Shown piece by piece: positions 6,407 to 54,951 of a DNA stretch of 56,431 nt. The notes beneath the pieces were generated by a model, which saw only the letters and a program-made list of their open reading frames with translations, searched no databases and was not told the DNA's origin. Source of the stretch: an uncultured Candidatus Saccharibacteria bacterium (lineage in GTDB: Bacteria > Patescibacteriota > Minisyncoccia > Minisyncoccales > CAYUYO01). Position numbers and translations under genes: made by a program. Each line of letters starts with the position of its first letter. Within the stretch, counting starts at the first letter, position 1. The DNA is taken from assembly GCA_964449385.1 (NCBI GenBank), contig CAYUYO010000004.1, positions 1 to 56,431 on the forward strand, read 5' to 3'.

Positions 6407-6589
6407 TTATTTCTTTTTATCCTTCTTAGAAGTTTTATTTATTTCAGACTCAACGATGGGCATATAAACAGCCCTGTAAAGATTAAGTAATCTCGTGGCT
6501 TTATCAAGCGCCACCCGATCAGAAAGATCTTCGCCGAATTCTTTCTTATAAAGTTCCTTAAATTTTTCTAACGATTCTTTAGATATCAT
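6407..6589 (-). CDS. small hypothetical protein (LSD..A...L..LYRAVY family; paralog of 15970..16179)
   Basis: 60-aa ORF whose start overlaps the mltG stop (ATGA). About 45 percent identical by eye over 40 aa to the island ORF at 15970..16179. Confidence 0.55.
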   Translation of the reverse strand: MISKESLEKFKELYKKEFGEDLSDRVALDKATRLLNLYRAVYMPIVESEINKTSKKDKKK

Positions 6590-7554
6590 TTTGATTTCAA
6601 ATATTGCTCAATGTTTTCTAAGTGCTCTTCGTAAGTTTTGGCCAGATGAATTTGTCCTTCGCTGTCGTGTAAGTAATAGAGATATTCGCTATCTTCCGAA
6701 TTAATCACAGCATTAATCGCCGCCAGACCAGGGTTGCAAATCGGAGATGGCGGCCGTCCCTTGTGAAGATAAGTGTTATAAGGTGAATCAAATTTATAAT
6801 CTTCTGGTTTTATAATCGGCCACCAGTTTCCTGGTTCTCCTAAGGCATACTGAATAGTAGCATCTATTTCAAACTTCATATCTTTTAACCACCTGTTCCA
6901 AATCACTCCAGCAATTAAAGGCATTTCGCCTTCATTGGCCGCTTCTCTTTGAACTAAAGATGCAAGGACGATTAAGGTGTCGTTCCTGATATTCTTCTCT
7001 TCGGCTTCTTTGAGTAGATCAACCGCTTTCTCATCAAACTGGCTTTTCATTCTTTTTGCAACGTCCGTGCCTGTATAATCTAAATTAAGAAGATAAGTGT
7101 CGGGAAACAAATAACCCTCGTGAGCCTCAACAAGAAATTCTCCTTTTGCCAGGTTGCTCCAGCTTAATTCTTTTTGTAATTTCTCCGCGATTTCCGTAGC
7201 TCTTAATCCTTCAGGTATCACTACCCATTTCTGATACGGTTGATTAACCAAAACATCGGCCAGCTGCCAAGCATTCATTCCTTTGGAAACCTTGTATCCG
7301 CCCGGCTCTATTTTCCCCTGCCAGCCTTTATTTTTTAAAACATAGTTAAACGCCCACTCGCTTCGGATATATCCTTGTTCTTTTAATTTGGGAATCAATT
7401 CTTCTTCGGTTGTAGTAAGGTTGATTGTGATTTTCTCTGTTTCTGCTCCTTTTTGCGGTGCTGAAAATTGATAAAGAAATAAAAAAACGGCGATTCCTAT
7501 TAGCAAAAAGATTATTGCTCCGCCTACTATTGCAATTTTTTTATTTACGGCCAT
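6586..7554 (-). CDS. mltG: endolytic murein transglycosylase MltG (YceG-like)
   Basis: N-terminal TM helix plus GYLFPDTYLL and NTYLHKGRPPSPICNPG motifs. Confidence 0.85.
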   Translation of the reverse strand: MAVNKKIAIVGGAIIFLLIGIAVFLFLYQFSAPQKGAETEKITINLTTTEEELIPKLKEQGYIRSEWAFNYVLKNKGWQGKIEPGGYKVSKGMNAWQLADVLVNQPYQKWVVIPEGLRATEIAEKLQKELSWSNLAKGEFLVEAHEGYLFPDTYLLNLDYTGTDVAKRMKSQFDEKAVDLLKEAEEKNIRNDTLIVLASLVQREAANEGEMPLIAGVIWNRWLKDMKFEIDATIQYALGEPGNWWPIIKPEDYKFDSPYNTYLHKGRPPSPICNPGLAAINAVINSEDSEYLYYLHDSEGQIHLAKTYEEHLENIEQYLKSK

Positions 7555-7574: not shown

Positions 7575-8363
7575 TCACTCGGTGCCCATTAAAATTTCCC
7601 CGCATTTGGATTCGGCAGCTATTGCCAAATCAATTATATCGTCAAGTTCCGGTTCAACACTGGTCAACTCTTCTCCGTTTTTCAGTTTCGCCCCTACCGT
7701 TCTAGCGTGTGTCTGCCAAACGCTTTCCACCTCGCAATTGGCAATCGCTTGTTTAATTGTCAGCCATTCTGGAGTATCTCCCGGGCAAGGAGTAAATTCG
7801 CAATTAGGACCAGTACGGCTAACGTAGGAGCCGTCCGGACAAAGCTTGGCTTCTTGGGTACAGGCTACCTGCCCTAATTCTGATGAAGGGTTGAGTTGCC
7901 AGATAGAATAATTGAGATAACCGGCGAAGCTGACCCAAAGAATATATGGTAAAAGAAGAAGTGCCGCCGGCCGTGAGATTTTATAAAAAACAATAATCGT
8001 CCCAATAATCGCCAGCCAGAGAAAAATAATCTCAATAAATGCCGCTCCGGGGTTACGCAGGCCGAAAAATATAATTGACCAGAGTGTATTCAAGACAAGC
8101 TGACCGATAAATATACAAAGCGCTGTTTTTACTTCTTTTCGTTCAAATCCATGACGCCACACCAAGAACGCCGCCACTCCCATAAGAAAATACAGCGTCG
8201 TCCACGCGGGACCAAAAATCCAATTTGGCGGACTAAAACTCGGCTTTTGAAGCAAGGCATACCAAGTTGGGATTGACGAGACGGTAAACACCGAGCCAAT
8301 CAATCCAGCAAGTTCCGAAACAACAATGGTAATAACTAACTTAAAAAAATTATTAAGCTTCAT
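7575..8363 (-). CDS. tspO: TspO/MBR tryptophan-rich sensory protein fused to a C-terminal Cys-rich soluble domain
   Basis: PSFSPPNWIFGPAWTTLYFLMGVAAFLVW and five TM helices in the first 160 aa or so, followed by a roughly 95-aa extension with 6 Cys. Confidence 0.75.
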   Translation of the reverse strand: MKLNNFFKLVITIVVSELAGLIGSVFTVSSIPTWYALLQKPSFSPPNWIFGPAWTTLYFLMGVAAFLVWRHGFERKEVKTALCIFIGQLVLNTLWSIIFFGLRNPGAAFIEIIFLWLAIIGTIIVFYKISRPAALLLLPYILWVSFAGYLNYSIWQLNPSSELGQVACTQEAKLCPDGSYVSRTGPNCEFTPCPGDTPEWLTIKQAIANCEVESVWQTHARTVGAKLKNGEELTSVEPELDDIIDLAIAAESKCGEILMGTE

Positions 8364-8442
8364 AAGTTTATTTTATCACAATCCACTTAATCTTGCCTCT
8401 CTTCATCCACTAATTGCCCCGTGGCGAAAGATATCGAAGGAA

Positions 8443-9675
8443 TTATCCTCCAGATGCTTGATTAACTAAGGTTAGATTTCCGTCATCATTTCGTATGTAT
8501 TGTTTCGTTTCTAAAAATTCCATTTTATCTTTATCGCCTTCCTCATAATATCCTATAACCTCTTCTTTGCCATCTTCTTCAACTAATTTAATCAATAAAT
8601 CCCCTTTATTATAAACTTCCCAGTTCTTATCTATTCTTCCAAAAATAAGGGCATCGCGTTTTTCGGCCTTTGGCATCGTGTAGATTAAATTATCATCTTT
8701 ATCATAAATTTTTATTTCATCTCGTGCTTGGATGGTATAAATAGTCCAAATCCAAGTTTCGGTAAAATTGAGGCTTCTCCTTTGATTTTTGATTATAACA
8801 TCAACGAGAAAATCATAACAAAAAAGTGCGTTTTCTTTTGTCCAATTCGGCGGGCCCCAATTATGACCATGATTTAATATATATTTCCATTCTTTATTAT
8901 TATTTACACCAACTTTTGCGGTTAAATCCTCGAACTTTCGCATTAAATCTCTATCAATCCCTTTTTCAAGAAAATCAGCTCTATCATACAAATCTGAAAA
9001 CCAACCTCTACCTTGTCCAGGAAAAATATTGCTTGATTCTCTTAATTTTTTATCCTCCTCTGACGGAGGGCTCAAATCGTATCGTGGATTAAGCCTTATT
9101 CGTAATAGTGATTCCTCAAAAACTTTAAATTTAATTATTGCCATTTCGTTTAATGCTTCTTTGTATTTACCTTGCTCAATAAAGTCTTCAACCGTCTTAA
9201 TCTGCGTCTTTATAGAATCATCTTTAATTAAATCGGCAAGACTTATTATCTCCCATTCTAAACCGAAGTAGTGACGAGAGTATTCTTGAAAGAAAGAAAC
9301 AATAGGAGCAATCAATCCCTTTGCATGATTGGTGTTTGGCACGATGCCCTGATGTTTTATATTATTACGAATGGTATTAAGTTGGGCGATCTCGTTTTTG
9401 CTTATTAAAGAAAAACTGGTGTCAGTTTTTCTTTCGTATCCCTCAATTGCATTCAGGGTATCCAACAAATAACTCTTTTGCGTTAAGGAAATGTTCAGTT
9501 GACTTGCTATTGCACCAGTAAAATTATCTAAGGCGTCGTGTAAGGCAATTAAACCCTGCGAGAAATTAAAAGTATCATTTGGCGTATCGCAAAACTGAAT
9601 TGCTTTCTTAAATATAGTTTTCGCCAACACCAATCTATAGACAATATGCGGTTTTAATTGTTGCAAAGTGGACAT
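8443..9675 (-). CDS. hypothetical protein with an N-terminal HEPN-like Rx4H motif
   Basis: 410-aa ORF. A helical N-terminal region of about 140 aa ends in LNTIRNNIKHQG (R-N-x-x-x-H). The rest is unrecognised. Confidence 0.4.
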   Translation of the reverse strand: MSTLQQLKPHIVYRLVLAKTIFKKAIQFCDTPNDTFNFSQGLIALHDALDNFTGAIASQLNISLTQKSYLLDTLNAIEGYERKTDTSFSLISKNEIAQLNTIRNNIKHQGIVPNTNHAKGLIAPIVSFFQEYSRHYFGLEWEIISLADLIKDDSIKTQIKTVEDFIEQGKYKEALNEMAIIKFKVFEESLLRIRLNPRYDLSPPSEEDKKLRESSNIFPGQGRGWFSDLYDRADFLEKGIDRDLMRKFEDLTAKVGVNNNKEWKYILNHGHNWGPPNWTKENALFCYDFLVDVIIKNQRRSLNFTETWIWTIYTIQARDEIKIYDKDDNLIYTMPKAEKRDALIFGRIDKNWEVYNKGDLLIKLVEEDGKEEVIGYYEEGDKDKMEFLETKQYIRNDDGNLTLVNQASGG

Positions 9676-9772
9676 GGTTTTTTTACAATAAGTCCTGATT
9701 TTTTATAAATTTCCGCTAAATGCTTTTGATAAAACTGAATTGAAAAGCTCTTTGAGTTTTGATTTTTTATTC

Positions 9773-10066
9773 CTAATCATTTATCAAATGATAAAATTGC
9801 TCTTTAACTATTTTTGTAATTCTATCAAGTTCTGCTTTGTCTACTTGTTTGAGATCATACTCATCAACAAATTTTACCCACTCATCGTTTCGAAGAGTAA
9901 AAAACCTTATCTCGTCTACCGAATATGGACTTTCGTCAGGCTTTAGCACTTCCATTCTTCCGCCGGCCCAACCTTTATACTTAGGATTCCGAATTATCTC
10001 CTCAACAAACGAAAGTGTGTATCCTTTATCTCTTTCTCTCCTAATTTTTTTTGTTGAATAAGTCAT
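9773..10066 (-). CDS. hypothetical protein (last gene of the 4-gene overlapping operon)
   Basis: 97-aa ORF whose start overlaps the upstream stop by 4 nt. Confidence 0.5.
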   Translation of the reverse strand: MTYSTKKIRRERDKGYTLSFVEEIIRNPKYKGWAGGRMEVLKPDESPYSVDEIRFFTLRNDEWVKFVDEYDLKQVDKAELDRITKIVKEQFYHLIND

Positions 10067-10875
10067 GATAGATTATATTTTTGATATGCTTCAGCAAGTC
10101 TAATATCGTATTTATTTTGAGCATATTCAGAACCATTATACAAACGGGCGAATGTAGCCCAATCCCTATTTTTCAAGGCATTAATCTTTCTCGAATCAGA
10201 ACTGATAAACTTTAAAAATGTCTCAACATGGGCTTCTTGTCCCGCTTTAAGATAATCAACAAATTCCCGTGCCGTATTAAAACCACAAGCTTGATGATTA
10301 AAACCCATAATTTGGAACATGCCATAAGATGCACAATTCCAAGCGCATTCATGGACGTTAAGAGCTTCGGCTAAGCGCGAGTTTTCAGCGTCGCCACCCT
10401 TATAAAGACTACGATTCCATGTGGGAGAAATAAGCGTGGGATACTTTATCATTAAAGCATCGAGGTCTAAGCCAACCTTTTTTAGTTCACGGTAAAATAT
10501 ATGCGCCTCGAATAGAACGGTTAATAAGCCAGTTTTTTGGAAACCAGAACGCCCGCCCGACTCTACTTCGGCAACAGCTAAAACGCTCGCAACATCCAGA
10601 CCATACAAGGAAGCCATTTCAGCAATTCTATTTCTATCTAAGGTTTGATTTTTATTCGGAGCGGGATAAACTTGATCCTGTTTCGGGATTGGCGACTTTT
10701 TTTCTTCAGAGTCTTTTACTGGTTCGGTTTTTATTATCGGCTTCTCATCCTTTGGAAGAATAACGGGGGTCTTTGGTAAGACACTATTCTTCTTTTTATT
10801 CTTAAAAGAAGCAATAAGTTCTAATATAAACCTCTTAAACGCTTCTCCTAATTTTTTTGTTGGCCGCTTAGTCAT
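10063..10875 (-). CDS. N-acetylmuramidase-family (DUF3380) peptidoglycan hydrolase, endolysin-like
   Basis: AVAEVESGGRSGF, FEAHIFYR, GMFQIMGFNH and FARLYNGSEYAQNKYD motifs. A K/P-rich N-terminal linker of about 85 aa has no clear signal peptide. Confidence 0.7.
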   Translation of the reverse strand: MTKRPTKKLGEAFKRFILELIASFKNKKKNSVLPKTPVILPKDEKPIIKTEPVKDSEEKKSPIPKQDQVYPAPNKNQTLDRNRIAEMASLYGLDVASVLAVAEVESGGRSGFQKTGLLTVLFEAHIFYRELKKVGLDLDALMIKYPTLISPTWNRSLYKGGDAENSRLAEALNVHECAWNCASYGMFQIMGFNHQACGFNTAREFVDYLKAGQEAHVETFLKFISSDSRKINALKNRDWATFARLYNGSEYAQNKYDIRLAEAYQKYNLS

Positions 10876-11486
10876 TGTTTTAAATATTTAATAAACTCTA
10901 CCCCAAATTCTGAAATCCAAACAAATGGAGCATTGACGGGCCCCAAACGAGAAGAAGGGTCGCTTAATAAGATCCTTAGATTTATCAAGTTATAAATATT
11001 AACGAGGTGAATGGCTTCGTTACCATAAACCTGATAATTTCTATCCTTTCGCGATACATCAACCTCTCTTAAAACTCTTATATCTTCGGAGCTCATCTGC
11101 GATAAAGTATGAATAAACTTTTCTAATTGAAATGTCGATTTTTGCTCAGTAACTGCATATCCTAAAAATATGTTTCGGAAGTGTTCCCTTTTCTCCTCAT
11201 TCCGCTCGGTTAAATATTTCTCAAGCGCAAAGACAAAACCGTCCTGAAATTCTTCTTGTTGTAAAAGTTTCTGTGTAAAAATTTCAGGGTTATCTCTTAT
11301 CATTTCCACCCATTCAAGAGCCTTTTGCTGTCTTAGTTTTAAGCCGGCACCAAATAAAGCCTTACTTAATCCCCACGCAATGTTCAAAGCGGGTACACTA
11401 GAAACAATCTGATCGGCAACAACCAGTGCGCTCTCTTTAATAATTTGCTTGTCTTTTTTATTCATAACCCTAACTTTATTAGTCAA
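10872..11486 (-). CDS. hypothetical protein with a weak Abi-alpha (DUF4393)-like pattern
   Basis: 204-aa ORF with an N-terminal amphipathic/hydrophobic stretch (SSVPALNIAWGLSKALFGAGL). FRNIFLGYA and LSQMSSEDIRVLREV resemble Abi-alpha conserved blocks. Judged by eye only. Confidence 0.35.
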   Translation of the reverse strand: MTNKVRVMNKKDKQIIKESALVVADQIVSSVPALNIAWGLSKALFGAGLKLRQQKALEWVEMIRDNPEIFTQKLLQQEEFQDGFVFALEKYLTERNEEKREHFRNIFLGYAVTEQKSTFQLEKFIHTLSQMSSEDIRVLREVDVSRKDRNYQVYGNEAIHLVNIYNLINLRILLSDPSSRLGPVNAPFVWISEFGVEFIKYLKQ

Positions 11487-12366
11487 AATTTTGTATTTCT
11501 GGTTTTCTTCTTCCTCCTTTACGTGCGGCGATTTTGGGAACTCCAGGACCGGGCATAATAATTGTTTTAATTTTCGTATTCTTCAGACTTCTCATTAGTT
11601 TTGCCATTGGAATTTTAGTCTCCCTACTTTTTTTCATTAATTCGGCTATTTCATCACCAGAAATAGTTTTACCTGGTATTGCCTCGACAAAAGTTTGAAT
11701 ATTCCATGTTGTCTCTGATTCCTCATTTGTATTAGTCATCGTATCTAAAAGAGTCTCTGGTGGCAATTCATCTATAACCCCTTGCATGCCCATTCCGTGC
11801 GTGTGTATATGTTTGAATTGATCAATTTCGCCCCGTTCAATTGCAAACACCCACATATCGTAATCTGTAAATGGAATATGAAAATCAGAATATTTAATGA
11901 ATGTATTTCCATCTATCCTCATTTGGAAATGATAGTGAGGTTTTCTCCCTCGAATCTTAAAAAAATGTCCAGTAAAATCTCCTTTAGAACATGAAAAAGA
12001 CCACTCAAGGTTTTTATACTTAATGGTTTGCTCAATAACTTTTGATGAGCGTTTTTCTTTAACAAGGTCATTTATATTTTTAAATGGTGCTTCACTATTT
12101 GCTAACCATCTAAAGTAGGGATTAATTCTCCAGTAATCAAATCTACTAAAAACCAAAGGAAAATGTTTTTTATTGAATCCGACAGGTCTTAGTAACCAGT
12201 GTATACAAGGACGATCAACGGAAAAATAATCAAATCTCTGATGACAAAGATAACATTCATCTCTCTTAAGAGCATCTTTAAACCCTTGAAATTCTTCTTC
12301 CGTTTCTTTAATAGTCCTTTCATTCATTTTCGTAATCTGCTGAGGTGTTAATTTGGGAAAATCCAT
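11479..12366 (-). CDS. hypothetical Cys/His-rich protein (first gene of the 4-gene operon)
   Basis: 295-aa ORF with CYLCHQRFDYFSVDRPCIHW, KPHYHFQM and HIHTHGMG. No family recognised. Confidence 0.5.
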   Translation of the reverse strand: MDFPKLTPQQITKMNERTIKETEEEFQGFKDALKRDECYLCHQRFDYFSVDRPCIHWLLRPVGFNKKHFPLVFSRFDYWRINPYFRWLANSEAPFKNINDLVKEKRSSKVIEQTIKYKNLEWSFSCSKGDFTGHFFKIRGRKPHYHFQMRIDGNTFIKYSDFHIPFTDYDMWVFAIERGEIDQFKHIHTHGMGMQGVIDELPPETLLDTMTNTNEESETTWNIQTFVEAIPGKTISGDEIAELMKKSRETKIPMAKLMRSLKNTKIKTIIMPGPGVPKIAARKGGRRKPEIQNFD

Positions 12367-12468
12367 AGTTTATCTTGAATTAACGCTTTTGATTACTTTT
12401 ATATCCTGTTTGATTAAGCCATAAAGTTTATAGCCCCCCTAAGTTATCCACAGTTGACTACTACTCTG

Positions 12469-12490
12469 CGTTCTAAAAACGTTCTATAAT
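12469..12490 (+). promoter_or_regulatory. candidate promoter/operator of the LexA-MTase gene
   Basis: Direct repeat CGTTCT (12469-12474) N5 CGTTCT (12480-12485) running into a perfect TATAAT (12485-12490), 37 nt upstream of the ATG. Confidence 0.4.
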
Positions 12491-12527
12491 AGAATTGTAG
12501 CATGTAAAGCTTACCAGTCAATAACTT

Positions 12528-14087
12528 ATGTTCACAAAAAGGCAAAAACAGATTCTTGATTACATAAAGAAGTTTATAAAAGATAAAGGCTACCCTCCTT
12601 CTTTTGAAGAAATAAGAAGGCATTTTGGATTTGTTTCAAAATCTACCGTTCATCACCACGTAGAAACACTGAAAGAAAAAGGATACCTTAATCACGCACG
12701 AACTATAGAGTTATCTAAAGGTGAAAAATCTTCTGGGCTTGTGGAAATTCCCCTACTCGGCACTATTGCCGCCGGCGAACCGATTGAGGCAATCGAAAAT
12801 AAGGAAACAATTGCAGTGCCAAAATCAAAGTTGCCCAGGAGCGGAGATTCTTATGCCCTACGTGTAGCTGGCGATAGTATGATTGACGAAAATATCAACA
12901 ATGGTGATGTCATTTTAGTAAAACAGCAGAACGTTGCTGAAAATGGTCAAAAAGTTGTCGCACTTATAGATAATCACGAAGCTACGCTAAAGAAGTTTTA
13001 CAAAGAAAAAGGATATATTCGCTTACAACCTGCCAACAAAAATATGGAGCCGATTATCCTACGTAACGGTAGAGATATTTCTATCCAGGGAGTAGTTCTT
13101 GATGTTATTCGTAAGGAAAATCCAACCCTTGCCGTTTTGCCAAAAATAAAAACAACCGAGATTAAGCAATATAGAAAACTCCCACTTAATCAAATTATTG
13201 TGGGAGATGCGATAGAAGAAATGAAAAAGATTCCAGGCAACTCAATAGATATGACATTCGCCGACCCGCCATTCAACCTTAATAAAAAATACGGCAACTA
13301 CAAAGATCAGAAAGCCTCCGAAGATTACATAAAATGGTGCGAACAATGGCTTAACGAGATGGTTAGAATAACTAAACCGAGCGGTTCGATCTTAGTACAT
13401 AACATACCAAAATGGTTAGTATATTTTGCTAACCATCTAAATAAAATTGCTGTATTCAAACATTGGATTGCGTGGGACTCAATGGGAGCTCCGCTCGGTA
13501 AAACTTTACTTCCCTCCCATTATGGAATTTTATTCTATACAAAAACTCCAAAAGGTTTTAAATTCCATGAACTTAGATCGCCGCATAAAAAATGTCGGGT
13601 TTGTGGGGAAATGATAAAAGACTACGGTGGGAAAAAAAGCCAAATCAATCCTTATGGAACTCTTTTAAGCGATGTTTGGACAGATATACATCGCATTAGA
13701 CACAATACACGCAGAGATGCTCACCCCTGCCAGCTTCCTGAACCGCTGCTTGAACGTTTAATACTAATGACGACAAACGAGAATGATGTAGTTTTAGATC
13801 CCTTTATAGGCGCTGGCACAACCGCATTAGCTGCAAAGCGACTTGGTCGGAACTATATTGGTATAGACATAGACCTGAAGTATAAAAAAATAGTTAGCGA
13901 CAAAATTAGAAAAGTAAATTATCGATCAAGTAATGGCTATAAATACAATAACGATGCCCCGGCTGTGGCATCGAAATATCTGAGAAATCTGACTATATCG
14001 GAAGATGAGGAAATCTATCCTATTGATAATCCTCAATTTAAATCCGATGACAAACGACGCAAGAATGTTACCCTTTCTCTGTTTTAG
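12528..14087 (+). CDS. complete LexA (wHTH + S24 peptidase) fused in frame to a beta-class N6A/N4C DNA methyltransferase
   Basis: The LexA head is RQKQILDYIKKFIKDKGYPPSFEEIRRHFGFVSKSTVHHHVETLKEKGYL. The cleavage loop is GTIAAGEPIEA, the catalytic Ser is in VAGDSM and the catalytic Lys in EATLKKF. MTase motif IV (FADPPFNL) precedes motif I (LDPFIGAGTTALAA). Confidence 0.85.
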   Translation: MFTKRQKQILDYIKKFIKDKGYPPSFEEIRRHFGFVSKSTVHHHVETLKEKGYLNHARTIELSKGEKSSGLVEIPLLGTIAAGEPIEAIENKETIAVPKSKLPRSGDSYALRVAGDSMIDENINNGDVILVKQQNVAENGQKVVALIDNHEATLKKFYKEKGYIRLQPANKNMEPIILRNGRDISIQGVVLDVIRKENPTLAVLPKIKTTEIKQYRKLPLNQIIVGDAIEEMKKIPGNSIDMTFADPPFNLNKKYGNYKDQKASEDYIKWCEQWLNEMVRITKPSGSILVHNIPKWLVYFANHLNKIAVFKHWIAWDSMGAPLGKTLLPSHYGILFYTKTPKGFKFHELRSPHKKCRVCGEMIKDYGGKKSQINPYGTLLSDVWTDIHRIRHNTRRDAHPCQLPEPLLERLILMTTNENDVVLDPFIGAGTTALAAKRLGRNYIGIDIDLKYKKIVSDKIRKVNYRSSNGYKYNNDAPAVASKYLRNLTISEDEEIYPIDNPQFKSDDKRRKNVTLSLF

Positions 14088-14823
14088 CGTCTTGAGCTTC
14101 TTTTATAATCTTCCTGTGTTTTTTAATAATTCTCTTTGATCTATAAACAATAGTTTTTCTGAACAATTGCTCAAATTGTTCCAATGTTTTTATTGGCGGA
14201 TCAATATCAAAATCCTTAGGCCTGAGATTCCCATCTTTTTCTCGATACTTAAGCAGTTTAGCTTTGTTAAGTCCCAAAAAGTTATAAAAGGGGGCTACCT
14301 CTATATTCTGAACTTCTTTTGTTTTTTCATTAAAATTGTAAATAACAAAAATATAGTAAATATTTCTCCCGTCAAATTTTCTAATTCTGTTAGGCCACTC
14401 ATTAAGAGTTCCCATATCGTTCTCGCTATTTTTCACAGCCACCCATTTGCCTTGCCTATTCTGACTCCTATTACCAGATTTAAACTCAATAGCAATAGGT
14501 GGCGCTGTCTTTAATTCGAAATCGGGGAAGTAATTTTTATGCGGCGCAATAGCATAATCTCTGTCGTTTTTGATAAAATCAGTTTTCTTAAAAATATCAA
14601 CGATAATATCGGTCAGGTATTCCTCAATAGCTGTGCCAAAAGTACGGTAATTGAAATCACCGGCACCAACAACCCGCTTTAAATCATCTAAAATCTTCTT
14701 TCTTGAGGAAATCAAAACCTTAATTGCCGCAGTACCATTTTTATTTTTTGCTTGTTTTTGAGGCATGTTTATTAAAATCACAATTCGTACTTTTAGGATA
14801 GCACTTAGAATGGGAAATGACAA
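14068..14823 (-). CDS. putative type II restriction endonuclease (PD-(D/E)xK)
   Basis: YFPDFELKTAPPIAIEFKSG fits PD...ExK. The gene is convergent with the MTase gene and overlaps it by 20 nt. The start is uncertain (14823 or the internal ATG at 14766). Confidence 0.55.
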   Translation of the reverse strand: MSFPILSAILKVRIVILINMPQKQAKNKNGTAAIKVLISSRKKILDDLKRVVGAGDFNYRTFGTAIEEYLTDIIVDIFKKTDFIKNDRDYAIAPHKNYFPDFELKTAPPIAIEFKSGNRSQNRQGKWVAVKNSENDMGTLNEWPNRIRKFDGRNIYYIFVIYNFNEKTKEVQNIEVAPFYNFLGLNKAKLLKYREKDGNLRPKDFDIDPPIKTLEQFEQLFRKTIVYRSKRIIKKHRKIIKEAQDAKTEKG

Positions 14824-14871
14824 TTCTTTTAATGGCGAATTCTGGTAAAATCTGTCAAAATGGAAATATAA

Positions 14872-15549
14872 ATGAAAATTACAATGAGCCTACCAAAAAC
14901 AATTTTAGATATTGTTAAAGTCATCCACGACAAGTTAGAAATTGTTCCAGAAAAAGATAAGGTACTTACGATTTCTTTATGGGATTTCAAGGACGAAAAC
15001 GGAGATGCTATTCCTAAAATGAACTTGAAAAATGGGTTAAGGAAATTAGCGGAAGATAATAAACTTATCCAATTAAGAGATATTAAATGTCTTGATAGAT
15101 TAGGAAGATTTGCCGGTGAGAGAATAGAGCTTGAAATTAATCGGGAAGCATTTTCAAAAATAAGTAAGTTAACGGAGAAAAGCATTAAAAAGAAAATCAA
15201 ACACGTTGCCTTAGACCCAAAATCTTATTCTTTAATAATTAACCATCAAGATTATGTGCCGTTTAGGTCAAAAAGGCATAAACAGGATTTAGAAGCAGAA
15301 ACAAAACAATTCAAAATCCTATATCATCTCTGGGAATTTAGAAAAGAAATAAAAAACGGGAAAGTAAGCCAGAAAATAGATTCTGATTTTGCATCCCTTT
15401 CCAATATCGCAAGAGGAGCTGAATGCACCGAAGAGGCATCCAGGCAACATATAAAAAGGCTTAGACAAAGATTTAAGAAAGAAAAGCTACCCATAGACAT
15501 TGAGCCAAGCGGAACTGGACTATATCAGTTGGTGATTGAATTAGAATAA
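14872..15549 (+). CDS. DNA-binding protein with a C-terminal OmpR/PhoB-type winged helix
   Basis: The C-terminus (EEASRQHIKRLRQRFKKEKLPIDIEPSGTGLYQLV) matches the Trans_reg_C pattern. Confidence 0.5.
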   Translation: MKITMSLPKTILDIVKVIHDKLEIVPEKDKVLTISLWDFKDENGDAIPKMNLKNGLRKLAEDNKLIQLRDIKCLDRLGRFAGERIELEINREAFSKISKLTEKSIKKKIKHVALDPKSYSLIINHQDYVPFRSKRHKQDLEAETKQFKILYHLWEFRKEIKNGKVSQKIDSDFASLSNIARGAECTEEASRQHIKRLRQRFKKEKLPIDIEPSGTGLYQLVIELE

Positions 15550-15719
15550 TCTCAATAAGTCTATTTCTGGACTATTTCTTGGTCGCCTTATCATAAGGTG
15601 GCTTTTTTATTTACGCATATTTTCAAGTCCCAATTGGTCATATGCTCCAAAATGACCAAATTTAGCTAGTGATTCGGCTGTTAAAATTAAATAAAAAGTA
15701 AATAAAATCATCAATTATT

Positions 15720-15959
15720 ATGAACCAAAATGAATTTTCAAGTTTTGATCTGGGATTGGCGACGGTGCTGATAACGCTGGCTTACGAGCTGCTCGAACTA
15801 GACAGATCTATGCCCAAAAAGGTTAGGTTTGTTTTCAGACGGGAGAAAAACATTGAGGGAGTAATGGCTGATTACTTTAATGACAAAATAAAACTGCCGG
15901 CCCAAACCTTATTCAATAACCAGAAAAATCTTAAATCACGCCTTTATTGTGGTGCGTGA
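15720..15959 (+). CDS. DUF5659-like small protein
   Basis: FSSFDLGLATVLITLAYELLELDRSMPKKVRFVFRRE matches the family pattern as I recall it. Confidence 0.45.
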   Translation: MNQNEFSSFDLGLATVLITLAYELLELDRSMPKKVRFVFRREKNIEGVMADYFNDKIKLPAQTLFNNQKNLKSRLYCGA

Positions 15960-15969
15960 TTTTTATTTT

Positions 15970-16179
15970 ATGTTGCCAGAAGCCGCAATTATTCAATTCA
16001 AAAAAATCTGGAAAAAGCTTTATGGAATTGAACTTAGCGATAAAGAAGCCGTTTTTCGGGCAAATAATTTGGTTGCTTTATATCGTGCGGTTTACGGAAA
16101 TCGGCAAGATATTCAAAACAATAAACAAATAAATTCTAATCATGCTGGAGAAAATAACATTCAAACAGAAAATAAATAA
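15970..16179 (+). CDS. small hypothetical protein (LYRAVY family; paralog of 6407..6589)
   Basis: Internal ATG of ORF 15949..16179. FKKIWKKLYGIELSDKEAVFRANNLVALYRAVY aligns with the 6407..6589 product. Confidence 0.5.
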   Translation: MLPEAAIIQFKKIWKKLYGIELSDKEAVFRANNLVALYRAVYGNRQDIQNNKQINSNHAGENNIQTENK

Positions 16180-16804
16180 GGATTGTGAAGGAAGTTTTGA
16201 AATAAGAGATTTGAGAGAAAAAGACAGATTTGTCGTGGACGACAAATTCCTGAACGGCTATGCCAGATTTCTGGGAGTTTATGCTGTCGGCGTTTACAAC
16301 TCACTCTGCCGGCACGCAAATAAAGAGCAAAAATGCTGGCCGTCCATTAAAAAGATAGTGCAGGAACTATCAATCGGCAGAAACAAAGTATTCGACAGCA
16401 TCAAGTATCTTGAATTTTGGCAGATCATCAAAAAGGAAAGGTTGGGCAAAAAACTAACAAACAGATATTTATTGCTAAGTAAACGCTATTGGAAACCCAT
16501 AAGTGAAGGTTCTCTCAAGGACTTCAGTGAAGTTTACCACATAAACTTCAAGAGTTTGCTGGATAAACTTCACGAGTTTACCTCATCAACTTCCATAGTA
16601 AGGAAACAAAATAGTAATTTATTAAAAAAGAAAGGAGATCTTTCTTTTAAAGAATTAGCCGACGCTTACAAAAAAGGAGAAAGAAAATGTAAGCCCTTCT
16701 TTTGGGGAGACGAAATGAGATGGTCTCAAAACAAATGGTGGGTTATTAAAAACGGTGAATGGCTTAAATTTGACGGAAATGAATCGGAAATAGAGTGGAG
16801 ATGA
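16142..16804 (+). CDS. winged-helix DNA-binding protein, replication-initiator/DnaD-like
   Basis: CWPSIKKIVQELSIGRNKVFDSIKYLEFWQIIKKER is a typical wHTH of plasmid/phage Rep-like proteins. Iteron-like repeats follow the gene. Confidence 0.45.
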   Translation: MLEKITFKQKINKDCEGSFEIRDLREKDRFVVDDKFLNGYARFLGVYAVGVYNSLCRHANKEQKCWPSIKKIVQELSIGRNKVFDSIKYLEFWQIIKKERLGKKLTNRYLLLSKRYWKPISEGSLKDFSEVYHINFKSLLDKLHEFTSSTSIVRKQNSNLLKKKGDLSFKELADAYKKGERKCKPFFWGDEMRWSQNKWWVIKNGEWLKFDGNESEIEWR

Positions 16805-16823
16805 ACCTGCCTCTTAAAACGCC

Positions 16824-16851
16824 TTGTATGAGTTGTATGAGCCTGTATGAC
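16824..16851. repeat. iteron-like tandem repeats TTGTATGAG TTGTATGAG CCTGTATGAC
   Basis: Three tandem 9-10 bp units read directly, 20 nt after the rep-like gene stop. Confidence 0.6.
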
Positions 16852-16920
16852 GATTTTCAAGCAAAAGGTAGAGATTTATACCGCCTACAAACATCTAACA
16901 CTTCTAACAATATATAATAT

Positions 16921-17211
16921 ATGGCGCAAGGTAAAAAAGTAACAGAAAAACAATGGAACGAATTTCTAAAAGTCCTCGGGGAGACGCTCGGTTTAATCGG
17001 AGCTACTTGTAGAAAAGTAGGGATTAGCCGCTGGACTTATTATGACCACCGATCAAAAGATAAAGAATTTGCTAAAAAAGCAGATCTAACCATAATGCAA
17101 ACGGGCGTAGCTTTTGCTGCGGATAAATTGCTCGAAGCAGTATCTCAAGGTGAGGGCTGGGCAATAAAATTTTTTTTAATGTGTAAAAGTAAGGAATGGC
17201 GGCCATACTAA
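16921..17211 (+). CDS. small HTH protein (terminase-small-subunit/excisionase-like)
   Basis: CRKVGISRWTYYDHRSKDKEFAKK HTH, with position immediately upstream of the recombinase gene. Confidence 0.4.
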   Translation: MAQGKKVTEKQWNEFLKVLGETLGLIGATCRKVGISRWTYYDHRSKDKEFAKKADLTIMQTGVAFAADKLLEAVSQGEGWAIKFFLMCKSKEWRPY

Positions 17212-17318
17212 GTTGTCCACTTGACTTCTTTTCTGGGTAGCACATTGTTTGTATTGAGCTGACGCTCCAGCCCTAAAAATGGCTCAGGTGGAGCGTCACC
17301 CGAGCCATTTTCAATAAC

Positions 17319-18956
17319 ATGAGCATGAACCAACAAGAAAAAATTAAATACTTGGTCTACTGCCGAAAATCTTCGGAACAAGAAGATAGGCAGGTACTAT
17401 CTATTGAATCTCAAAGAAACGAACTGGAAAGAATCATTGAAAACGAAGGATTAAAAGTTGTTGAGACATTGGAAGAATCTCATTCGGCAAAAAAGCCAGG
17501 CCGCCCTATCTTTGATAATCTTCTTGAAAAAATTGAAAAAGGAATCGCTAACGGACTCTTAGTTTGGAACGCAAATAGAATATCAAGAAATCCAATAGAT
17601 ACTGGCAGGATTGTTTATTTAATGGATGAAGGAAAACTGCTGGAAGTGAAGACGCCGGGCCAAGCATTTCGTAATACGCCCAACGATAAATTCTTACTCA
17701 ATCTCTTTTGTAGCCAGGCAAAATTGGAAAACGATAATAAAGGCGAAGATGTAAAACGTGGGCTGAAAACAAAAGCGGAAAAAGGAATGTATCCGGCGCC
17801 AGCTCCAACAGGATATATAAACGAAAAATATGCAGACAGGGGCAGCAAAAGAATACTGCCCGATCCTGAAAGGTTTGATCTGGTCAGAAAAATGTTTGAT
17901 ATGATGCTTAAAGGAATTCACTCGCCACTTCAAATTCTCAGAGCGGCTAATGACGAATGGGGTTTAAAAATGCCCAATGGTAAGAAAATGGGCAGAAGCA
18001 CTATCTATAACCTTTTTACCAATCCCGTTTATTACGGGATGTTTGAATATCCAAAACATAGTGGACTCTGGTATAAAGGCACTCACAAGCCAATGATAAC
18101 AGCTGAAGAATACGACCGAATTCAGTTCTTGCTCGGTAGAAAAGGGCGCCAGCGTCCTAAAACGCACGTCTTCGCCTTTACAGGACTTATACGATGCGCT
18201 GAGTGTGGTTGCATGGTTACGGCTGAAGAAAAGATAAAGAAACAGAAAAACGGCAACGTTCACCGATATATCTATTACCATTGCACCAAAAGGAAAAACC
18301 CGAACTGCACTCAAAAATGCATAGAGCAAAATGAATTGGAAAAACAAATCAAAGCCGCAATTGAAACAATCAGCATTCCGCCAGTGCTTCACGACTTTGC
18401 TCTGGAGTGGCTCAAAAAAGAAAACCAAAAAGAGTCGCATACCACAAACGTCGTGCTTGATACACAAGAAAAGAAATATAAAGACTGCCTGAAGAAATTA
18501 GCAGGTTTGATTGATATGAGGGCAGCTGGCGAAATAGATGAGGAAGAATTCAAATCAAGAAAACTTCCGCTAACTGCCGAGAAAAAGCGCTGGGAGCAGG
18601 TATTTACCAAAACCAGCCAGAGAGTGGATCAATGGCTAGATAAAGCTGACGAGATATTAGATTTCGCCCGAGATGCCAAAATAAGCTTCGAAAATGGCGA
18701 ACCCGACAATAAAAAAGAGATACTCTCCCGTTTAGGTTCGAACCTCCTGTTAAAAGACAAAATAATCGTAATTAACACCCAAAACACGCTGATTCCCATT
18801 CAGGCGCTTTCAACCGAAGATAAGCGGTTAGAACCTCTCAAAATAGGCAAAAATACGAAGGAGATAATGGAACTTTACTCAAAAAGTCCACGAATGCTGC
18901 GGGGCAAGGATTCGAACCTCGATCGATTGGACCAAAACCAACTGTCCTACCATTAG
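17319..18956 (+). CDS. large serine recombinase
   Basis: Resolvase-type N-domain (YCRKSSEQEDRQVLSIESQ, WNANRISRN), a recombinase domain, a zinc ribbon (CAECGCMV...YYHCTKRKNPNC) and a coiled-coil tail. The last 19 codons plus the stop lie antisense inside tRNA-Gln. Confidence 0.85.
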   Translation: MSMNQQEKIKYLVYCRKSSEQEDRQVLSIESQRNELERIIENEGLKVVETLEESHSAKKPGRPIFDNLLEKIEKGIANGLLVWNANRISRNPIDTGRIVYLMDEGKLLEVKTPGQAFRNTPNDKFLLNLFCSQAKLENDNKGEDVKRGLKTKAEKGMYPAPAPTGYINEKYADRGSKRILPDPERFDLVRKMFDMMLKGIHSPLQILRAANDEWGLKMPNGKKMGRSTIYNLFTNPVYYGMFEYPKHSGLWYKGTHKPMITAEEYDRIQFLLGRKGRQRPKTHVFAFTGLIRCAECGCMVTAEEKIKKQKNGNVHRYIYYHCTKRKNPNCTQKCIEQNELEKQIKAAIETISIPPVLHDFALEWLKKENQKESHTTNVVLDTQEKKYKDCLKKLAGLIDMRAAGEIDEEEFKSRKLPLTAEKKRWEQVFTKTSQRVDQWLDKADEILDFARDAKISFENGEPDNKKEILSRLGSNLLLKDKIIVINTQNTLIPIQALSTEDKRLEPLKIGKNTKEIMELYSKSPRMLRGKDSNLDRLDQNQLSYH

Positions 18957-18967
18957 ACGACCCCGCA
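18897..18967 (-). tRNA. tRNA-Gln (anticodon UUG)
   Basis: Manual cloverleaf: acceptor TGCGGGG/CCCCGCA, D stem GTCT/GGAC, anticodon stem GTTGG/CCAAT with loop TTTTGGT, T arm CGAGG-TTCGAAT-CCTTG. No CCA is encoded. Confidence 0.9.
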
Positions 18968-34320: not shown

Positions 34321-34752
34321 TTAAATGCCGAGTTCCTTAAGGCGTTCTGCTATATCCCCTATTTCTGCTTCAGTTTTATTTTTATATTTTTCAAACTCTA
34401 ATTCATCCCATATTTCAACTTTATCGTACATTCCGACAAATATAACTTTCTTTTTAAGTATTGCGTATTTTTTTAAATAATCAGGTATTAAAATTCTGCC
34501 CAAATTATCAATATTAACTTCCATTGCTCCTCCTAATATTGATCTAGAAAATCCTCTGGCATCAGCTTGTGTAAAAGGAAGTTTGGCTATATTTTTAGCA
34601 ACATTTTCCCACACCTTAATTGAATAAAGATAAAGACATTGGTCTAACCCCTTAGTTATTATTGCCCGTTTTTCTAAAGCCTTCCGAAATTTAGCCGGAA
34701 TAGCTAATCTTTTCTTATCATCTATTGAGTATGTATATTCTCCTATAAACAT
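34321..34752 (-). CDS. mraZ: transcriptional regulator MraZ
   Basis: MFIGEY...DDKKRLAIPAKFR and NLGRILIPDYL duplicated SpoVT/AbrB-like motifs. Confidence 0.9.
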   Translation of the reverse strand: MFIGEYTYSIDDKKRLAIPAKFRKALEKRAIITKGLDQCLYLYSIKVWENVAKNIAKLPFTQADARGFSRSILGGAMEVNIDNLGRILIPDYLKKYAILKKKVIFVGMYDKVEIWDELEFEKYKNKTEAEIGDIAERLKELGI

Positions 34753-34757
34753 ATTTA

Positions 34758-34824
34758 TTCACAGTTTTGTTCACTTATCCCCAGCTTTTTCCACAATTCC
34801 CCACTTATGTTCTTTTTAACCCAC
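34758..34824 (-). promoter_or_regulatory. array of GTGG(G/A)-type direct repeats with about 10-bp phasing (candidate MraZ operator)
   Basis: The minus strand reads GTGGGTT..GTGGGGA..GTGGAAA..CTGGGGA..GTGAACA..GTGAATA, ending 6 nt before the mraZ ATG. A TTGACT-17-TAAAAA promoter overlaps the array. Confidence 0.5.
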
Positions 34825-34962
34825 TCTAGACTATGAGTCAACCAATATTAACCACTCTTAAAATCCCGATAAAAACTGAGTTTTATCCACAGTATATCCA
34901 CAGACAATAAAAAAAACAGTCATAAATGCTGTTTTTTATATTTCTTATCTAATAGAAGTTTA

Positions 34963-52616: not shown

Positions 52617-53317
52617 AGATATTTTCTGCCATTTGCGTGGTTTTCGACTATTTGACCATCTTTAATTTGGATTATTTCTTCAGCATAATTAGCGATATTG
52701 GAATCGTGAGTAACTACTACCATTGTACCGCCTTTCTTAATATGGTATTCAGTTAAAATTTCCATTATTTTTCTTCCAGTAATAGAATCAAGGTTTCCGG
52801 TTGGCTCATCGGCAATAATTACTTCCGGATCATTAGCAAAAGCTCGAGCTAACGCCACCCTTTGTCTTTCTCCTCCCGAAAGCTCAGCCGGCTGATGTAG
52901 AACTCTTTCTTTAAGTCCAACCATCTCCAAAAGATCTGCTGCCTTTTTGTTTCTTTTTTCTAATGATGTTTTTTGAAAAATCATTGACAGGGTTACGTTT
53001 TGTAAAGCATTAAGATTAGGAAGCAGATTAAATTCTTGAAAAACAAATCCTAATACTTTCCCCCGAAATTGAGCAAGTTGACTTTCCGTCATTTTAGAAA
53101 TATCTTTTCCCTTTAAAAATACTTTTCCTTTTGTCGGAAAATCCAAACAACCCACCATATTTAACAAAGTAGATTTACCAGACCCGGAAGAACCCATAAT
53201 AGTTACAAAAGCACCTGGAGTAATCTCCAGGCTTATTCCCCTTAAAGCTGACAGCTCTACTTTTCCCAACTGATAAATCTTCCAAACATTTTCTAATTTG
53301 ATAACCGGCTCTGGCAT
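52604..53317 (-). CDS. ABC transporter ATP-binding protein (MacB/LolD-like)
   Basis: Walker [10 protein letters not shown], signature LSGGERQR, Walker [12 protein letters not shown]. Confidence 0.9.
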
Positions 53318-54951
53318 TATCGTAGAATTATTTTTTCTCCTTCTTCAAGTCCGGAAATAACTTCTATCATATCATTGCTTCCGAGAAGACCTGTTTCTAT
53401 TTCCCTGCTTTCAATAACTCCATCTTTAAAAATTTCAACTATTGTTTTCCCCTCTTTCTTTTGGACGGCATCTTCCAGAACAGTTAATACGTTTTCTCTG
53501 GAAGCAGTTTTAATAATAATGTCGGCTGTCATACCTGGATTTATTCCGTTTGGAATCTGTTCAAAAGCAACGGTTACTTCATAATAAACTATTCCTTCAA
53601 TAAGTTTTTCAGTAGGCTCAAGAGAAATTACTCTTCCTTTAAAAACTTGATCAGGAAAAGCAACTAAAGAAATATCAACTTGATTTCCAATATTTATTTT
53701 AATTATATCCTCTTCATAAATATCAACCTCTATTTCAAAAGGATCTGTTGGTAAAAGAATAATAACCGCATCTGGCAAGGCAGGCTGAACCATCTCCCCT
53801 ATTTTTTTGTTTATCTTTATTATTTGCCCTTCAATAGGACTTTTGAGAGTAGATTCTTGAATCTGATTTTCTAAAAGCTGAACTTGGGCTTGAGCTTGTT
53901 TTACTTGAGCTTGATATGAATTAACATCTTCCTGGCGAGGCGAAGCAACAAGCAAAGAAAGTTTGTCTTGGGCTGTTTTTAAAACACCTTGGGCAGTGGA
54001 AACCGAAGCCATACTAATATTTATATTTGTTTCGTTGGTCGCTTTGGCTGAAGCTATAGCTTGCTGAAAATTAGTGATATTTGTCAAAGCAGTATTGATA
54101 TAACTTTTTTGAGTATCTAAAGAAGTTTTATCAGTTGCAGAAACAGTATTATAATAAGATGATTGTTCGCAGATTTCTCTGATAAACCTTAAGCTGATTT
54201 GAATTTCCTTTAAAGCTTCTTTTGTACCAGAAACAGCAAGGTCAATATTATAATGTTGATTATTGTCGTCAACTGAACCTATATAAGATTTTATATCAGC
54301 TACAGCTTTTTCAATTTCATCTTTATTTTCTCTAACCATGATGCCTTCCTGGTATTCTTCAATTCTAATACCTCCTGCATAGTTTTCAGTAAAATAAGTT
54401 TTTTGAAGTAAAACGATCACCGTTGAAGCATTATCAGCTTCCAGATAAGAATCATCTAAGCTATTTACGACATCTTCATAGGCGGAATCTAGACTTTCTT
54501 CTGCTTTAGATTGAACATCTTTTAGGTTTTGCTGACTCGATTCTAAAGAAGTTTGCGCATTAGCTACGGTTGTTTCCGCAACTTGAATTTCTTCAGGACT
54601 TGCCCCAGTCAACAGTTTATCTAATCCTGCTTGAACCAAAGAAAGAGATGCTTTACTTTCTTGAAGTTGAATTTGAAGCTGAGTTGCTTCAAGTTTAATT
54701 AATTTTTCTCCCGATTTAACTTCATCGTTAACAGCAACATAGATTTTTTCAATTCTACCAGCATTTTTAAAATTAAGATTTGTTTCCTCTCCTTTTTTAA
54801 CCTGACCAGTTTCAGAAATTTCCTGAGTAATATTACCTATTTCTGTCTCAACTAAAGTAAATTTTGGCGTTTCTTTCTTTAAAAACCCTTGGTAGATGCC
54901 AATTATTAAAACGAGAACAATAATAATGGTTAAAATTATTTTCTTCTGCAT
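53317..54951 (-). CDS. HlyD-family periplasmic adaptor (MacA-like), long form
   Basis: N-terminal TM helix, lipoyl-like VKSGEKLIKLE, a long helical insert and C-terminal barrel motifs. Paralog of 91..1926. Confidence 0.8.
   Translation of the reverse strand: MQKKIILTIIIVLVLIIGIYQGFLKKETPKFTLVETEIGNITQEISETGQVKKGEETNLNFKNAGRIEKIYVAVNDEVKSGEKLIKLEATQLQIQLQESKASLSLVQAGLDKLLTGASPEEIQVAETTVANAQTSLESSQQNLKDVQSKAEESLDSAYEDVVNSLDDSYLEADNASTVIVLLQKTYFTENYAGGIRIEEYQEGIMVRENKDEIEKAVADIKSYIGSVDDNNQHYNIDLAVSGTKEALKEIQISLRFIREICEQSSYYNTVSATDKTSLDTQKSYINTALTNITNFQQAIASAKATNETNINISMASVSTAQGVLKTAQDKLSLLVASPRQEDVNSYQAQVKQAQAQVQLLENQIQESTLKSPIEGQIIKINKKIGEMVQPALPDAVIILLPTDPFEIEVDIYEEDIIKINIGNQVDISLVAFPDQVFKGRVISLEPTEKLIEGIVYYEVTVAFEQIPNGINPGMTADIIIKTASRENVLTVLEDAVQKKEGKTIVEIFKDGVIESREIETGLLGSNDMIEVISGLEEGEKIILR

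Follow-up and report, generated by a model that had tools for sequence, protein, structure and literature searches.

A 56,431-nt stretch (positions 1-56,431) of contig CAYUYO010000004.1 (Patescibacteria genome assembly GCA_964449385.1), referred to below as the window, that is the whole stretch of DNA that was analyzed and whose numbering is used for all coordinates, carries a gene (12528..14087, plus strand) whose single uninterrupted 519-aa frame unites a LexA winged-helix DNA-binding domain, a peptidase S24 domain and a beta-class amino-methylase domain. A gene for a predicted restriction endonuclease (14068..14772, minus strand) converges on it and overlaps its 3' end by 20 nt (14068-14087), and the region in front of it contains a candidate LexA operator. 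Both genes and their upstream regions belong to a mobile restriction-modification (R-M) cassette (12423..14861). A first-pass annotation, made from the letters alone, had already read this frame as a complete LexA (residues 1 to ~195) with an intact Ala-Gly loop and Ser/Lys dyad, joined to a beta-class amino-methylase from residue ~215, and these assignments were borne out by the profile and structure comparisons described below.

Pfam searches assigned residues 3-55 (12534..12692, plus strand) to PF01726 LexA_DNA_bind (E-value 1e-18) and residues 75-190 (12750..13097, plus strand) to PF00717 Peptidase_S24 (E-value 7e-31). The NCBIfam model of LexA, TIGR00498, covered residues 2-196 with a score of 193 bits versus the cut-off of 111. 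Thermotoga maritima LexA (3k2z) was the best LexA structure match, aligned end to end with residues 2-196 (E-value 2e-34), and E. coli LexA could be aligned with the same residues over its whole length at 34% identity. The latter alignment pairs A82-G83, the predicted self-cleavage bond (codons 12771..12776, plus strand), with A84-G85 of the E. coli protein, and pairs S117 (12876-12878) and K155 (12990-12992), both inside the S24 domain, with S119 and K156, respectively. The recognition helix, delineated from the alignment and from covariation with the candidate operator (see below), comprises about residues 38-48 (plus strand), with H43 (12654-12656) as the predicted specificity residue; this position corresponds to Glu45 in the recognition helix (helix 3) of E. 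coli LexA, which we take to make base contacts in the LexA-operator structure.

The methylase domain (residues 240-456; 13245..13895, plus strand) was identified as PF01555 N6_N4_Mtase (E-value 1e-51). Its motif IV, DPPF (residue 246; 13263-13274, plus strand), lies ahead of motif I, DPFIGAG (residue 424; 13797-13817, plus strand), which is the order of the beta class, and the Asp in motif IV presumably indicates N6-adenine as the target. The nearest relatives of this half in the PDB are M.MboIIA (1g60, E-value 2e-29), CcrM and M.RsrI, and PADLOC labeled it MTase_II. The S24 and methylase domains are connected by a linker (residues 196-219; 13113..13184, plus strand), whose residues 197-210 have a pLDDT below 50 in the AlphaFold2 (AF2) model, and unfused relatives of the methylase begin near the query residue 200-220. 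The AF2 model of the full-length fusion reached a pLDDT of 68, i.e. only moderate confidence, and was used solely to establish that the winged-helix and S24 domains are folded and that the linker is disordered. Within a variable region of the methylase modeled with low confidence (residues 353-401) we noted the invariant residues C356, C359, H399 and C401, which may constitute a zinc-binding target-recognition insert.

Among the about 5.8 billion protein clusters that were searched, more than 108 (clustered at 90% identity) contain the full three-domain protein, with members 65-90% identical to the protein from the window; the identical 519-aa protein is present on 11 contigs. This is one large family of Patescibacteria, and not a single oddity. 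The first-pass annotation had not recognized the architecture as a described one, and the full-text literature that we searched contains no description of it either; the family as such, however, already has a place in the databases under generic names, with its members called "transcriptional repressor LexA" in NCBI (in genomes of Patescibacteria, Parcubacteria or Tagabacteria) and "site-specific DNA-methyltransferase" in JGI. From genome and metagenome collections we drew 57 distinct loci with the fused gene (designated by L numbers), and in 52 of these independent loci the frame is intact and 502-542 aa long. The family alignment comprises 68 sequences, 64 of them with the S24 domain. In all 64 the residues A82, G83, S117 and K155 are invariant, while the adjacent positions 84, 114, 116 and 150 vary freely. 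Conservation is higher in the methylase half than in the LexA half.

A few loci depart from this architecture. In L025 (6001-7374 of contig CAZLGV010000001.1) a separate 203-aa lexA-like gene ends in TAA and the methylase starts three codons later, with a homologous convergent nuclease gene also in place, so that the whole arrangement is present in an unfused form, plausibly a candidate evolutionary precursor of the fusion. The record of L025 is labeled Gammaproteobacteria, and its gene content looks Patescibacteria-like. In L143 (2201-3319) and L144 (2008-3147) the winged helix is joined directly to the methylase and the S24 core is missing, which yields proteins of 385-399 aa (P0115 and P0116); both loci keep the promoter box and a direct repeat (TTTAGGT) of the kinds described below. 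Finally, the fusion gene of L014 contains an in-frame TGA.

The LexA part is found on other methylases as well. When residues 1-205 alone were searched against 1.84 billion cluster representatives, 47 proteins of at least 300 aa appeared among the 150 best matches (P0242-P0350), and all 47 contained both LexA_DNA_bind and Peptidase_S24. The remainder of these proteins matched N6_N4_Mtase in 30 cases, Eco57I in 7, N6_Mtase in 5 (two of them with TaqI_C), the D12 (Dam) class in 4, MmeI_Mtase in 4 and C-5 cytosine (C5) methylase in 3, the counts overlapping as related models match the same proteins. Thus, at least four families of DNA methylases bear the LexA head (N6_N4, Eco57I/N6_Mtase/TaqI-like, D12 and C5), and none of the 47 proteins departs from the Ala-Gly site, the Ser or the Lys. 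The presence of the same LexA module on several methylase families indicates that the fusion design has been selected repeatedly. Stand-alone LexA proteins of ~200 aa appeared in this search at about 52% identity and below. An unrelated type, a LexA-(C5+N6) double methylase of ~1040 aa (L193, 5001-8126; L195, 2167-5301) has a convergent ORF (open reading frame) of 395-400 aa downstream, in which no Pfam domains were detected, and its promoter combines TGTGGATAA with an 11-nt-period repeat of ACCGAAA or TTCGGTA, i.e. the same types of elements as in the window; in one of these two loci (L195) an HTH_3 gene lies upstream of the convergent candidate endonuclease ORF. The best-scoring type II methylase model of PADLOC, PDLC03238, aligns with the window protein from residue 118 and therefore includes a part of the S24 domain; LexA-methylase fusions exist unremarked in REBASE-derived data.

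The convergent gene encodes a protein for which searches of Pfam, NCBIfam, PHROGs, PADLOC and PDB sequences gave no match. Its 256 homologues are unnamed or "hypothetical protein", and none of them has a Pfam domain or a functional name. The first-pass annotation had suspected a cognate PD-(D/E)xK nuclease in an ORF starting at 14823. The identity of the protein and the 20-nt overlap have stood, and the start has not: the homologues are 223-233 aa long, so the translation likely begins at the ATG at 14772 (234 aa, with the stop codon at 14068-14070) rather than at the TTG at 14823. The protein was identified by the fold search alone. The AF2 model, built on 48 homologues (mean pLDDT 92.9, pTM 0.87), was compared with the PDB using Foldseek, and all of the 50 best matches were type IIP restriction endonucleases, with R.SwaI (E-value 6e-7), NlaIV, EcoRV and HincII at the top (E-values 6e-7 to 1e-4). 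SwaI, NlaIV, EcoRV and HincII are blunt cutters of the EcoRV branch. The candidate catalytic residues D84 (14521-14523), E96 (14485-14487) and K98 (14479-14481, all minus strand), within FPDFEL ... IAIEFKSG, are invariant in the 48 homologues and located on consecutive strands of the model. The modeling thus supports the prediction that the partner of the methylase is a type II endonuclease of the PD-(D/E)xK superfamily with an EcoRV/SwaI/HincII-type fold. Host DNA (590 kb) was analyzed for avoided palindromes, and no decisive signal of a recognition site emerged; GGTACC (0.49) and GATATC (0.71) were only mildly depleted and GTYRAC was not depleted.

In the region upstream of the endonuclease (R) gene (14773..14861, minus strand) we found neither a gene for a controller (C) protein nor a copy of the tandem operator, and only a weak sigma-70-like match, TTGTCA-17-TATCCT, at 14823-14795. 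In 13 of 52 cassettes, in contrast to the one in the window, an XRE-type C gene (encoding a protein with ...KPQSYISKIESGERRLDV...) lies directly upstream of R (L010, L014, L015, L020, L023, L024, L090, L094-L097, L100 and L195). Judging from this gene content, control by the LexA-methylase and control by a C protein appear to coexist in some cassettes. The first-pass annotation had suggested that the LexA part might serve in place of a C protein; the relatives with a C gene argue against a simple replacement. Another group of loci that have no C gene (L001, L119, L122, L132, L134, L136 and L143-L145) share the motif AAAATAGGGGTAGAGTGAAAG ~10-40 nt upstream of the R start, which may be a promoter or leader element of R; the motif is not present in the R upstream region of the window.

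The two genes travel together. DNA homology to the closest relative, L086 (87%), has its exact limits at 12423 and 14861, and homology to L106 spans 12398-14832; in both cases the flanks are unrelated, and between loci in general the flanking genes are entirely different. From the ends of homology at 12423 and 14861 it follows that the mobile unit consists of the promoter, the methylase (M) gene, the R gene and the R upstream region, ~2.4 kb altogether. A homologue of R, convergent and immediately downstream, was found in 26 of 26 loci with a fused methylase from the genome collection. In another 59 loci, which come from Chloroflexota, Poribacteria, Planctomycetota, archaea and other groups, the methylase relative (55-70% identical) is present only in unfused form, and there was no R homologue except for one copy, 30% identical, in an archaeal locus. 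As is typical of type II R-M systems, a separate endonuclease gene is linked to the methylase gene.

In the promoter region of the methylase gene we identified a direct repeat with an 11-nt period, CGTTCTAAAA / CGTTCTATAA (12469..12489, plus strand; GTTC-N7-GTTC), whose second copy overlaps a TATAAT -10 hexamer read from the sequence (12485..12490, plus strand) and which we regard as the candidate LexA operator. The SOS box of alphaproteobacteria is also GTTC-N7-GTTC. Nearly all of the 57 promoters contain an 11-nt-period direct repeat that abuts or overlaps TATAAT, with the repeat unit depending on the cassette (GTTCGGT, TTTCGGT, TTTCTAT, GTTCTAT, GTTAGTA, TTTAGGT, ATCGGG) and with both copies changing together. 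The identity of residue 43 follows the core of the repeat, being Q or E in 34/34 loci with CGG and F, H or Y in 14/14 loci with CTA, counts that are inflated by shared ancestry. The helices associated with CTA otherwise differ (SKSTVHHH, SVSTAHFH, SVSTIHYH), an indication that the switch to this core occurred more than once. Recognition of direct repeats has evolved several times in LexA (PMC7739468, where a Patescibacteria study is cited among the sources). The fusion accordingly resembles methylases with an N-terminal helix-turn-helix (HTH) in that, in silico, an N-terminal DNA-binding domain goes together with a candidate operator in the protein's own promoter.

Neither the rest of the 56 kb window nor the loci (up to 21 kb long) contain a further copy of the cassette-specific tandem repeat, and the region upstream of R is free of it as well. 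The only other GTTC-N7-GTTC match in the window (14408-14422) falls within the R ORF, where it coincides with the codons of the invariant ENDMGT, and is probably a by-product of the R protein sequence; two matches in the window are within chance (28/100 shuffles). On the opposite strand, a divergent sigma-70-like promoter (12494..12521, minus strand; TTGACT-16-TACAAT, 10 of 12 matches, TG-extended) faces left, across the operator. For the forward promoter we considered TTGACT at 12454 as a -35 element and rejected it, as it is 25 nt from TATAAT and thus too far. Some further symmetries were noted in this region: an inverted repeat TAAGTTAT/ATAACTTA at 12440-12447 and 12521-12528 brackets the M promoter, its right arm being equal to the left arm minus TCCACAG, and TTGACT/AGTCAA at 12454-12459 and 12513-12518 also bracket it. 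The promoters that we call "type A" are flanked by GTTGACA ... TGTCAAC, and only these have a TGTCAA element just before the ATG.

Upstream of the operator there is a DnaA-box-like 12-mer, AGTTATCCACAG (12442..12453, plus strand), with the core TTATCCACA at 12444-12452. The exact 9-mer TTATCCACA, in either orientation, is present in 49 of the 57 promoters of fused genes, and in 55 of them when at most one mismatch is allowed; conserved flanks extend it to AGTTATCCACAG, and the box is usually located 28-32 nt upstream of TATAAT. In 473 kb of sequence we counted 63 exact copies of TTATCCACA, compared with ~6 expected from the composition, and 50 of them lie within 210 nt upstream of a fused gene. 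We take AGTTATCCACAG, flanks included, to be the consensus high-affinity DnaA box. The box is constant while the LexA heads vary, and it is therefore likely read by a conserved host factor. It probably adds an input from such a factor to the methylase promoter, with DnaA as the simplest candidate; possible readers are DnaA, MraZ or another factor. Elsewhere in the window, direct repeats that contain GTGG and recur every 10-12 nt (34755-34902, minus strand) are situated directly upstream of the genes for MraZ (34321-34752), RsmH and a penicillin-binding protein, and include two tandem copies of CTGTGGATA at 34883-34902. They look like an MraZ operator built from DnaA-box-like units, and the occurrence of such a DnaA-box-like run in front of mraZ complicates the naming of the R-M promoter box as a DnaA box. 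A third exact copy of TTATCCACA (54999-55007), with the extension GTGTGGATAACTT as in the R-M promoters, is found between a gene for an HlyD-like protein (53317-54951, minus strand) and a gene for a holin-like protein (55106-55426, plus strand). On account of this intergenic copy the box seems to be a host-wide regulatory site.

We propose that the fusion protein is a cis-fused autorepressor of its own methylase gene which can be released by DNA damage, a reading that the sequence comparisons lead us to consider fairly probable. The protein would dimerize through its S24 core, and the two heads of the dimer would bind the direct repeat with an 11-bp period at 12469-12489, which overlaps its own -10 box, thereby repressing the synthesis of the methylase in the manner of the HTH-methylase autoregulators. 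Activated RecA would then trigger self-cleavage at A82-G83, and RecA could be activated by general DNA damage, by single-stranded DNA entering with the cassette, or by breaks that the system's own nuclease introduces into under-methylated DNA. The cleavage would separate the head from the S24-methylase body, the promoter would be derepressed and the output of methylase would rise. In this way the chromosome would be protected in response to damage, and the system would be a type II counterpart of restriction alleviation. With self-inflicted breaks as the trigger, the circuit would act as negative feedback against self-restriction, and it would also keep methylase at its maximum while the cassette becomes established in a new host. 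The endonuclease would be transcribed convergently from its own promoter, outside the control of the LexA operator. The cleavage chemistry is strictly conserved in more than 100 diverse fusions that involve several methylase families, and from this we argue that self-cleavage is in use. The first-pass annotation had likewise inferred that RecA*-stimulated cleavage might tune R-M expression or the M:R balance, and all of the sequence evidence is compatible with this suggestion.

Several observations weigh against this proposal. Searches with tblastn detected no recA in the window or in the flanks of the fused loci, so the presence of RecA in the host is assumed. The forward methylase promoter is devoid of a recognizable -35 element at the canonical distance, an arrangement shared by most loci, and the best sigma-70-like match in the promoter region is the one that points leftward. 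The covariation between residue 43 and the repeat core may reduce to perhaps two or three independent switches. It is also conceivable that the cleaved S24-methylase fragment could be degraded, as the fragments of E. coli LexA are, which would reverse the predicted outcome. Finally, the variants L143 and L144 lack the S24 core, which shows this core to be dispensable for the R-M system as such.

The last point bears on an alternative explanation, namely that the LexA module supplies no more than a dimeric DNA-binding head, through which the methylase gene is autoregulated at establishment and in steady state, and that self-cleavage is not used physiologically, the S24 core being a dimerization domain. 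The retention of the same promoter elements by the S24-less L143 and L144 is what would be expected of such a plain autorepressor, a quarter of the relatives have a C protein as well for the timing of R, and autorepression by HTH-methylases needs no protease (PMC3874152). Nonetheless, we consider this explanation unlikely, because 64/64 members of the family and 47/47 fusions to diverse methylases retain the Ala-Gly site, the Ser and the Lys while the neighboring residues vary, a pattern hard to explain without selection for cleavage.

If the fragments are degraded, cleavage might even turn the system against its host. Cleavage brought about by DNA damage or by phage-induced RecA* would then expose degrons, the S24-methylase fragment would be lost, methylation would fall and the stable endonuclease would kill the cell, in a way that resembles abortive infection or post-segregational killing. 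The R gene has no LexA operator and would stay expressed, and the N-terminal cleavage fragment would end in ...IAA, presumably similar to the end of cleaved E. coli LexA that is recognized by ClpXP. On the other hand, the same cleavage derepresses the promoter, so that fresh methylase is made, and the methylation already present persists on the DNA; damage-triggered suicide therefore appears to us quite improbable.

Equally doubtful is the possibility that the protein is the LexA of the cell, as its name in NCBI implies, which controls an SOS regulon on the chromosome and has methylation as an additional activity. The score of the protein above the curated cut-off of the LexA equivalog model would fit this role, the closest stand-alone LexA proteins are ~50% identical to its LexA part, and tblastn found no second lexA in the window or in the fused loci with their flanks. 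A master regulator of the host would, however, hardly be expected to move with a nuclease as a 2.4 kb cassette into unrelated flanks, and the operators differ from cassette to cassette, tracking the recognition helix of each. Moreover, the promoter of the fusion gene itself is the sole site of the tandem operator in the 56 kb window and in the loci (up to 21 kb long), and the same LexA module is borne by several methylase families. As to a collapsed stop codon, a frameshift or a chimeric assembly joining a lexA gene to a methylase gene, the separate genes of L025 and the in-frame TGA of L014 might bring such an artefact to mind, but the more than 108 independent clusters, the intact frames of 52/57 loci from many samples and assemblers and the identical protein on 11 contigs exclude it for practical purposes, and the continuous 519-codon frame reported by the first-pass annotation is genuine.

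The damage-releasable autorepressor that we favor would combine features of several known systems. Autorepression by methylases through an N-terminal HTH is established (review: PMC3874152). Like M.SsoII, M.Ecl18kI, M.EcoRII and M.MspI, the fusion has an N-terminal DNA-binding domain on a protective methylase and an operator (here a candidate one) at the M promoter. The methylases of the SsoII/EcoRII type, however, are C5 methylases with a short HTH region, have no protease domain and are not known to be linked to DNA damage, whereas here a complete LexA with its cleavage site resides on a beta-class amino-methylase, and in the relatives on gamma-class, Dam-class or C5 methylases. With LexA itself (TIGR00498; 3k2z, 1jhh, 3jso) the protein shares homology over the full length, the Ala-Gly site, the Ser/Lys dyad and a direct-repeat candidate operator. 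It differs from LexA by the 300-residue C-terminal methylase, by its place in a mobile R-M cassette, and by a candidate operator found solely at its own promoter, with no SOS regulon evident in the scanned window and loci. The convergent units are reminiscent of the R-M systems controlled by C proteins (AhdI, PvuII, Esp1396I, Kpn2I), and the 13/52 relatives with a C gene, as well as the LexA-C5 relative L195, possess the controller too; in contrast to those systems, the cassette of the window has no C gene, and the LexA module is proposed to act on M and not on R.

A conceptual parallel is offered by the restriction alleviation of type I systems (by ClpXP) and by CapH/CapP of CBASS, in which a defense is retuned upon DNA damage (mentioned in PMC12255303). 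Restriction alleviation degrades a nuclease subunit and the metalloprotease CapP cleaves a separate repressor, whereas here the sensor-repressor is a part of the methylase polypeptide. The known kind to which the protein belongs is therefore the methylase with an autoregulatory N-terminal DNA-binding domain, and what is new is that this domain is a complete, apparently cleavable SOS repressor, which recurs on several methylase families. The full-text literature searched, whose coverage did not extend to a 2017 study of SOS networks in Patescibacteria, contains no description of a natural LexA-methylase fusion.

Type II R-M systems resemble toxin-antitoxin systems, and their main regulatory problem is to have the methylase ahead of the nuclease. 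To our knowledge, none of the known solutions (C proteins, HTH-methylases, methylation of promoters, antisense RNA) senses DNA damage. If our proposal is correct, the cassette would represent the first type II design in which the activation of RecA acts directly on the supply of methylase, which would limit self-restriction and aid establishment after the entry of single-stranded DNA. Extending this further, we tentatively speculate that the fusions represent a widespread and undescribed SOS-coupled control of type II R-M systems, used in Patescibacteria as a portable cassette of operator, host-factor box and self-cleaving LexA head on at least four methylase families. RecA, activated among other things by accidental cuts of the system itself, would release the head and boost methylation, a built-in sensor of autoimmunity and a type II form of restriction alleviation, and DnaA or MraZ would furnish a second input. 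Such an input would tie the supply of methylase to replication or division. The hosts are Patescibacteria, with tiny genomes and little experimental biology, and the design is testable directly in E. coli with cloned parts. The protein offers a compact natural fusion of a damage-releasable repressor with an enzyme, and the pairs of operator and recognition helix (residue 43 versus repeat positions 5-6) provide a resource for studies of LexA specificity.

Repressor and methylase genes are found side by side also in phages. In the immunity regions of the Marinitoga phage MPV1 and of an Acinetobacter prophage a cI gene (HTH-S24) directly precedes a gene for a beta-class methylase on the same strand. 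In contrast to the fusion, the two genes are separate and the repressors are XRE-type CI proteins and not winged helices of the LexA type; this adjacency is a plausible candidate for an evolutionary precursor of the fusion. A search of 50,697 phage records and of IMG/VR returned no fused LexA-methylase. In GenBank phages and IMG/VR there were only the adjacent cI and methylase genes, and we rejected a phage origin for this reason.

Analysis of the genomic neighborhood suggests that the R-M cassette of the window is carried by a probable integrated element (~8400-18967), which also encodes a muramidase/endolysin (10063-10875), a Rep/DnaD-like HTH_36 protein (16142-16804) and a large serine recombinase (17319-18956), the 3' end of the last overlapping a tRNA-Gln gene (18896-18967, minus strand) by ~60 nt. 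On the left this region is preceded by the host genes for YceG (6586-7554) and TspO (7575-8363), and on the right it is followed by those for DnaX and CysS. In two other loci (L026 and L087) the cassette adjoins a tRNA gene located upstream of R, which hints that insertion of the cassette, or of the element that carries it, is tRNA-linked.

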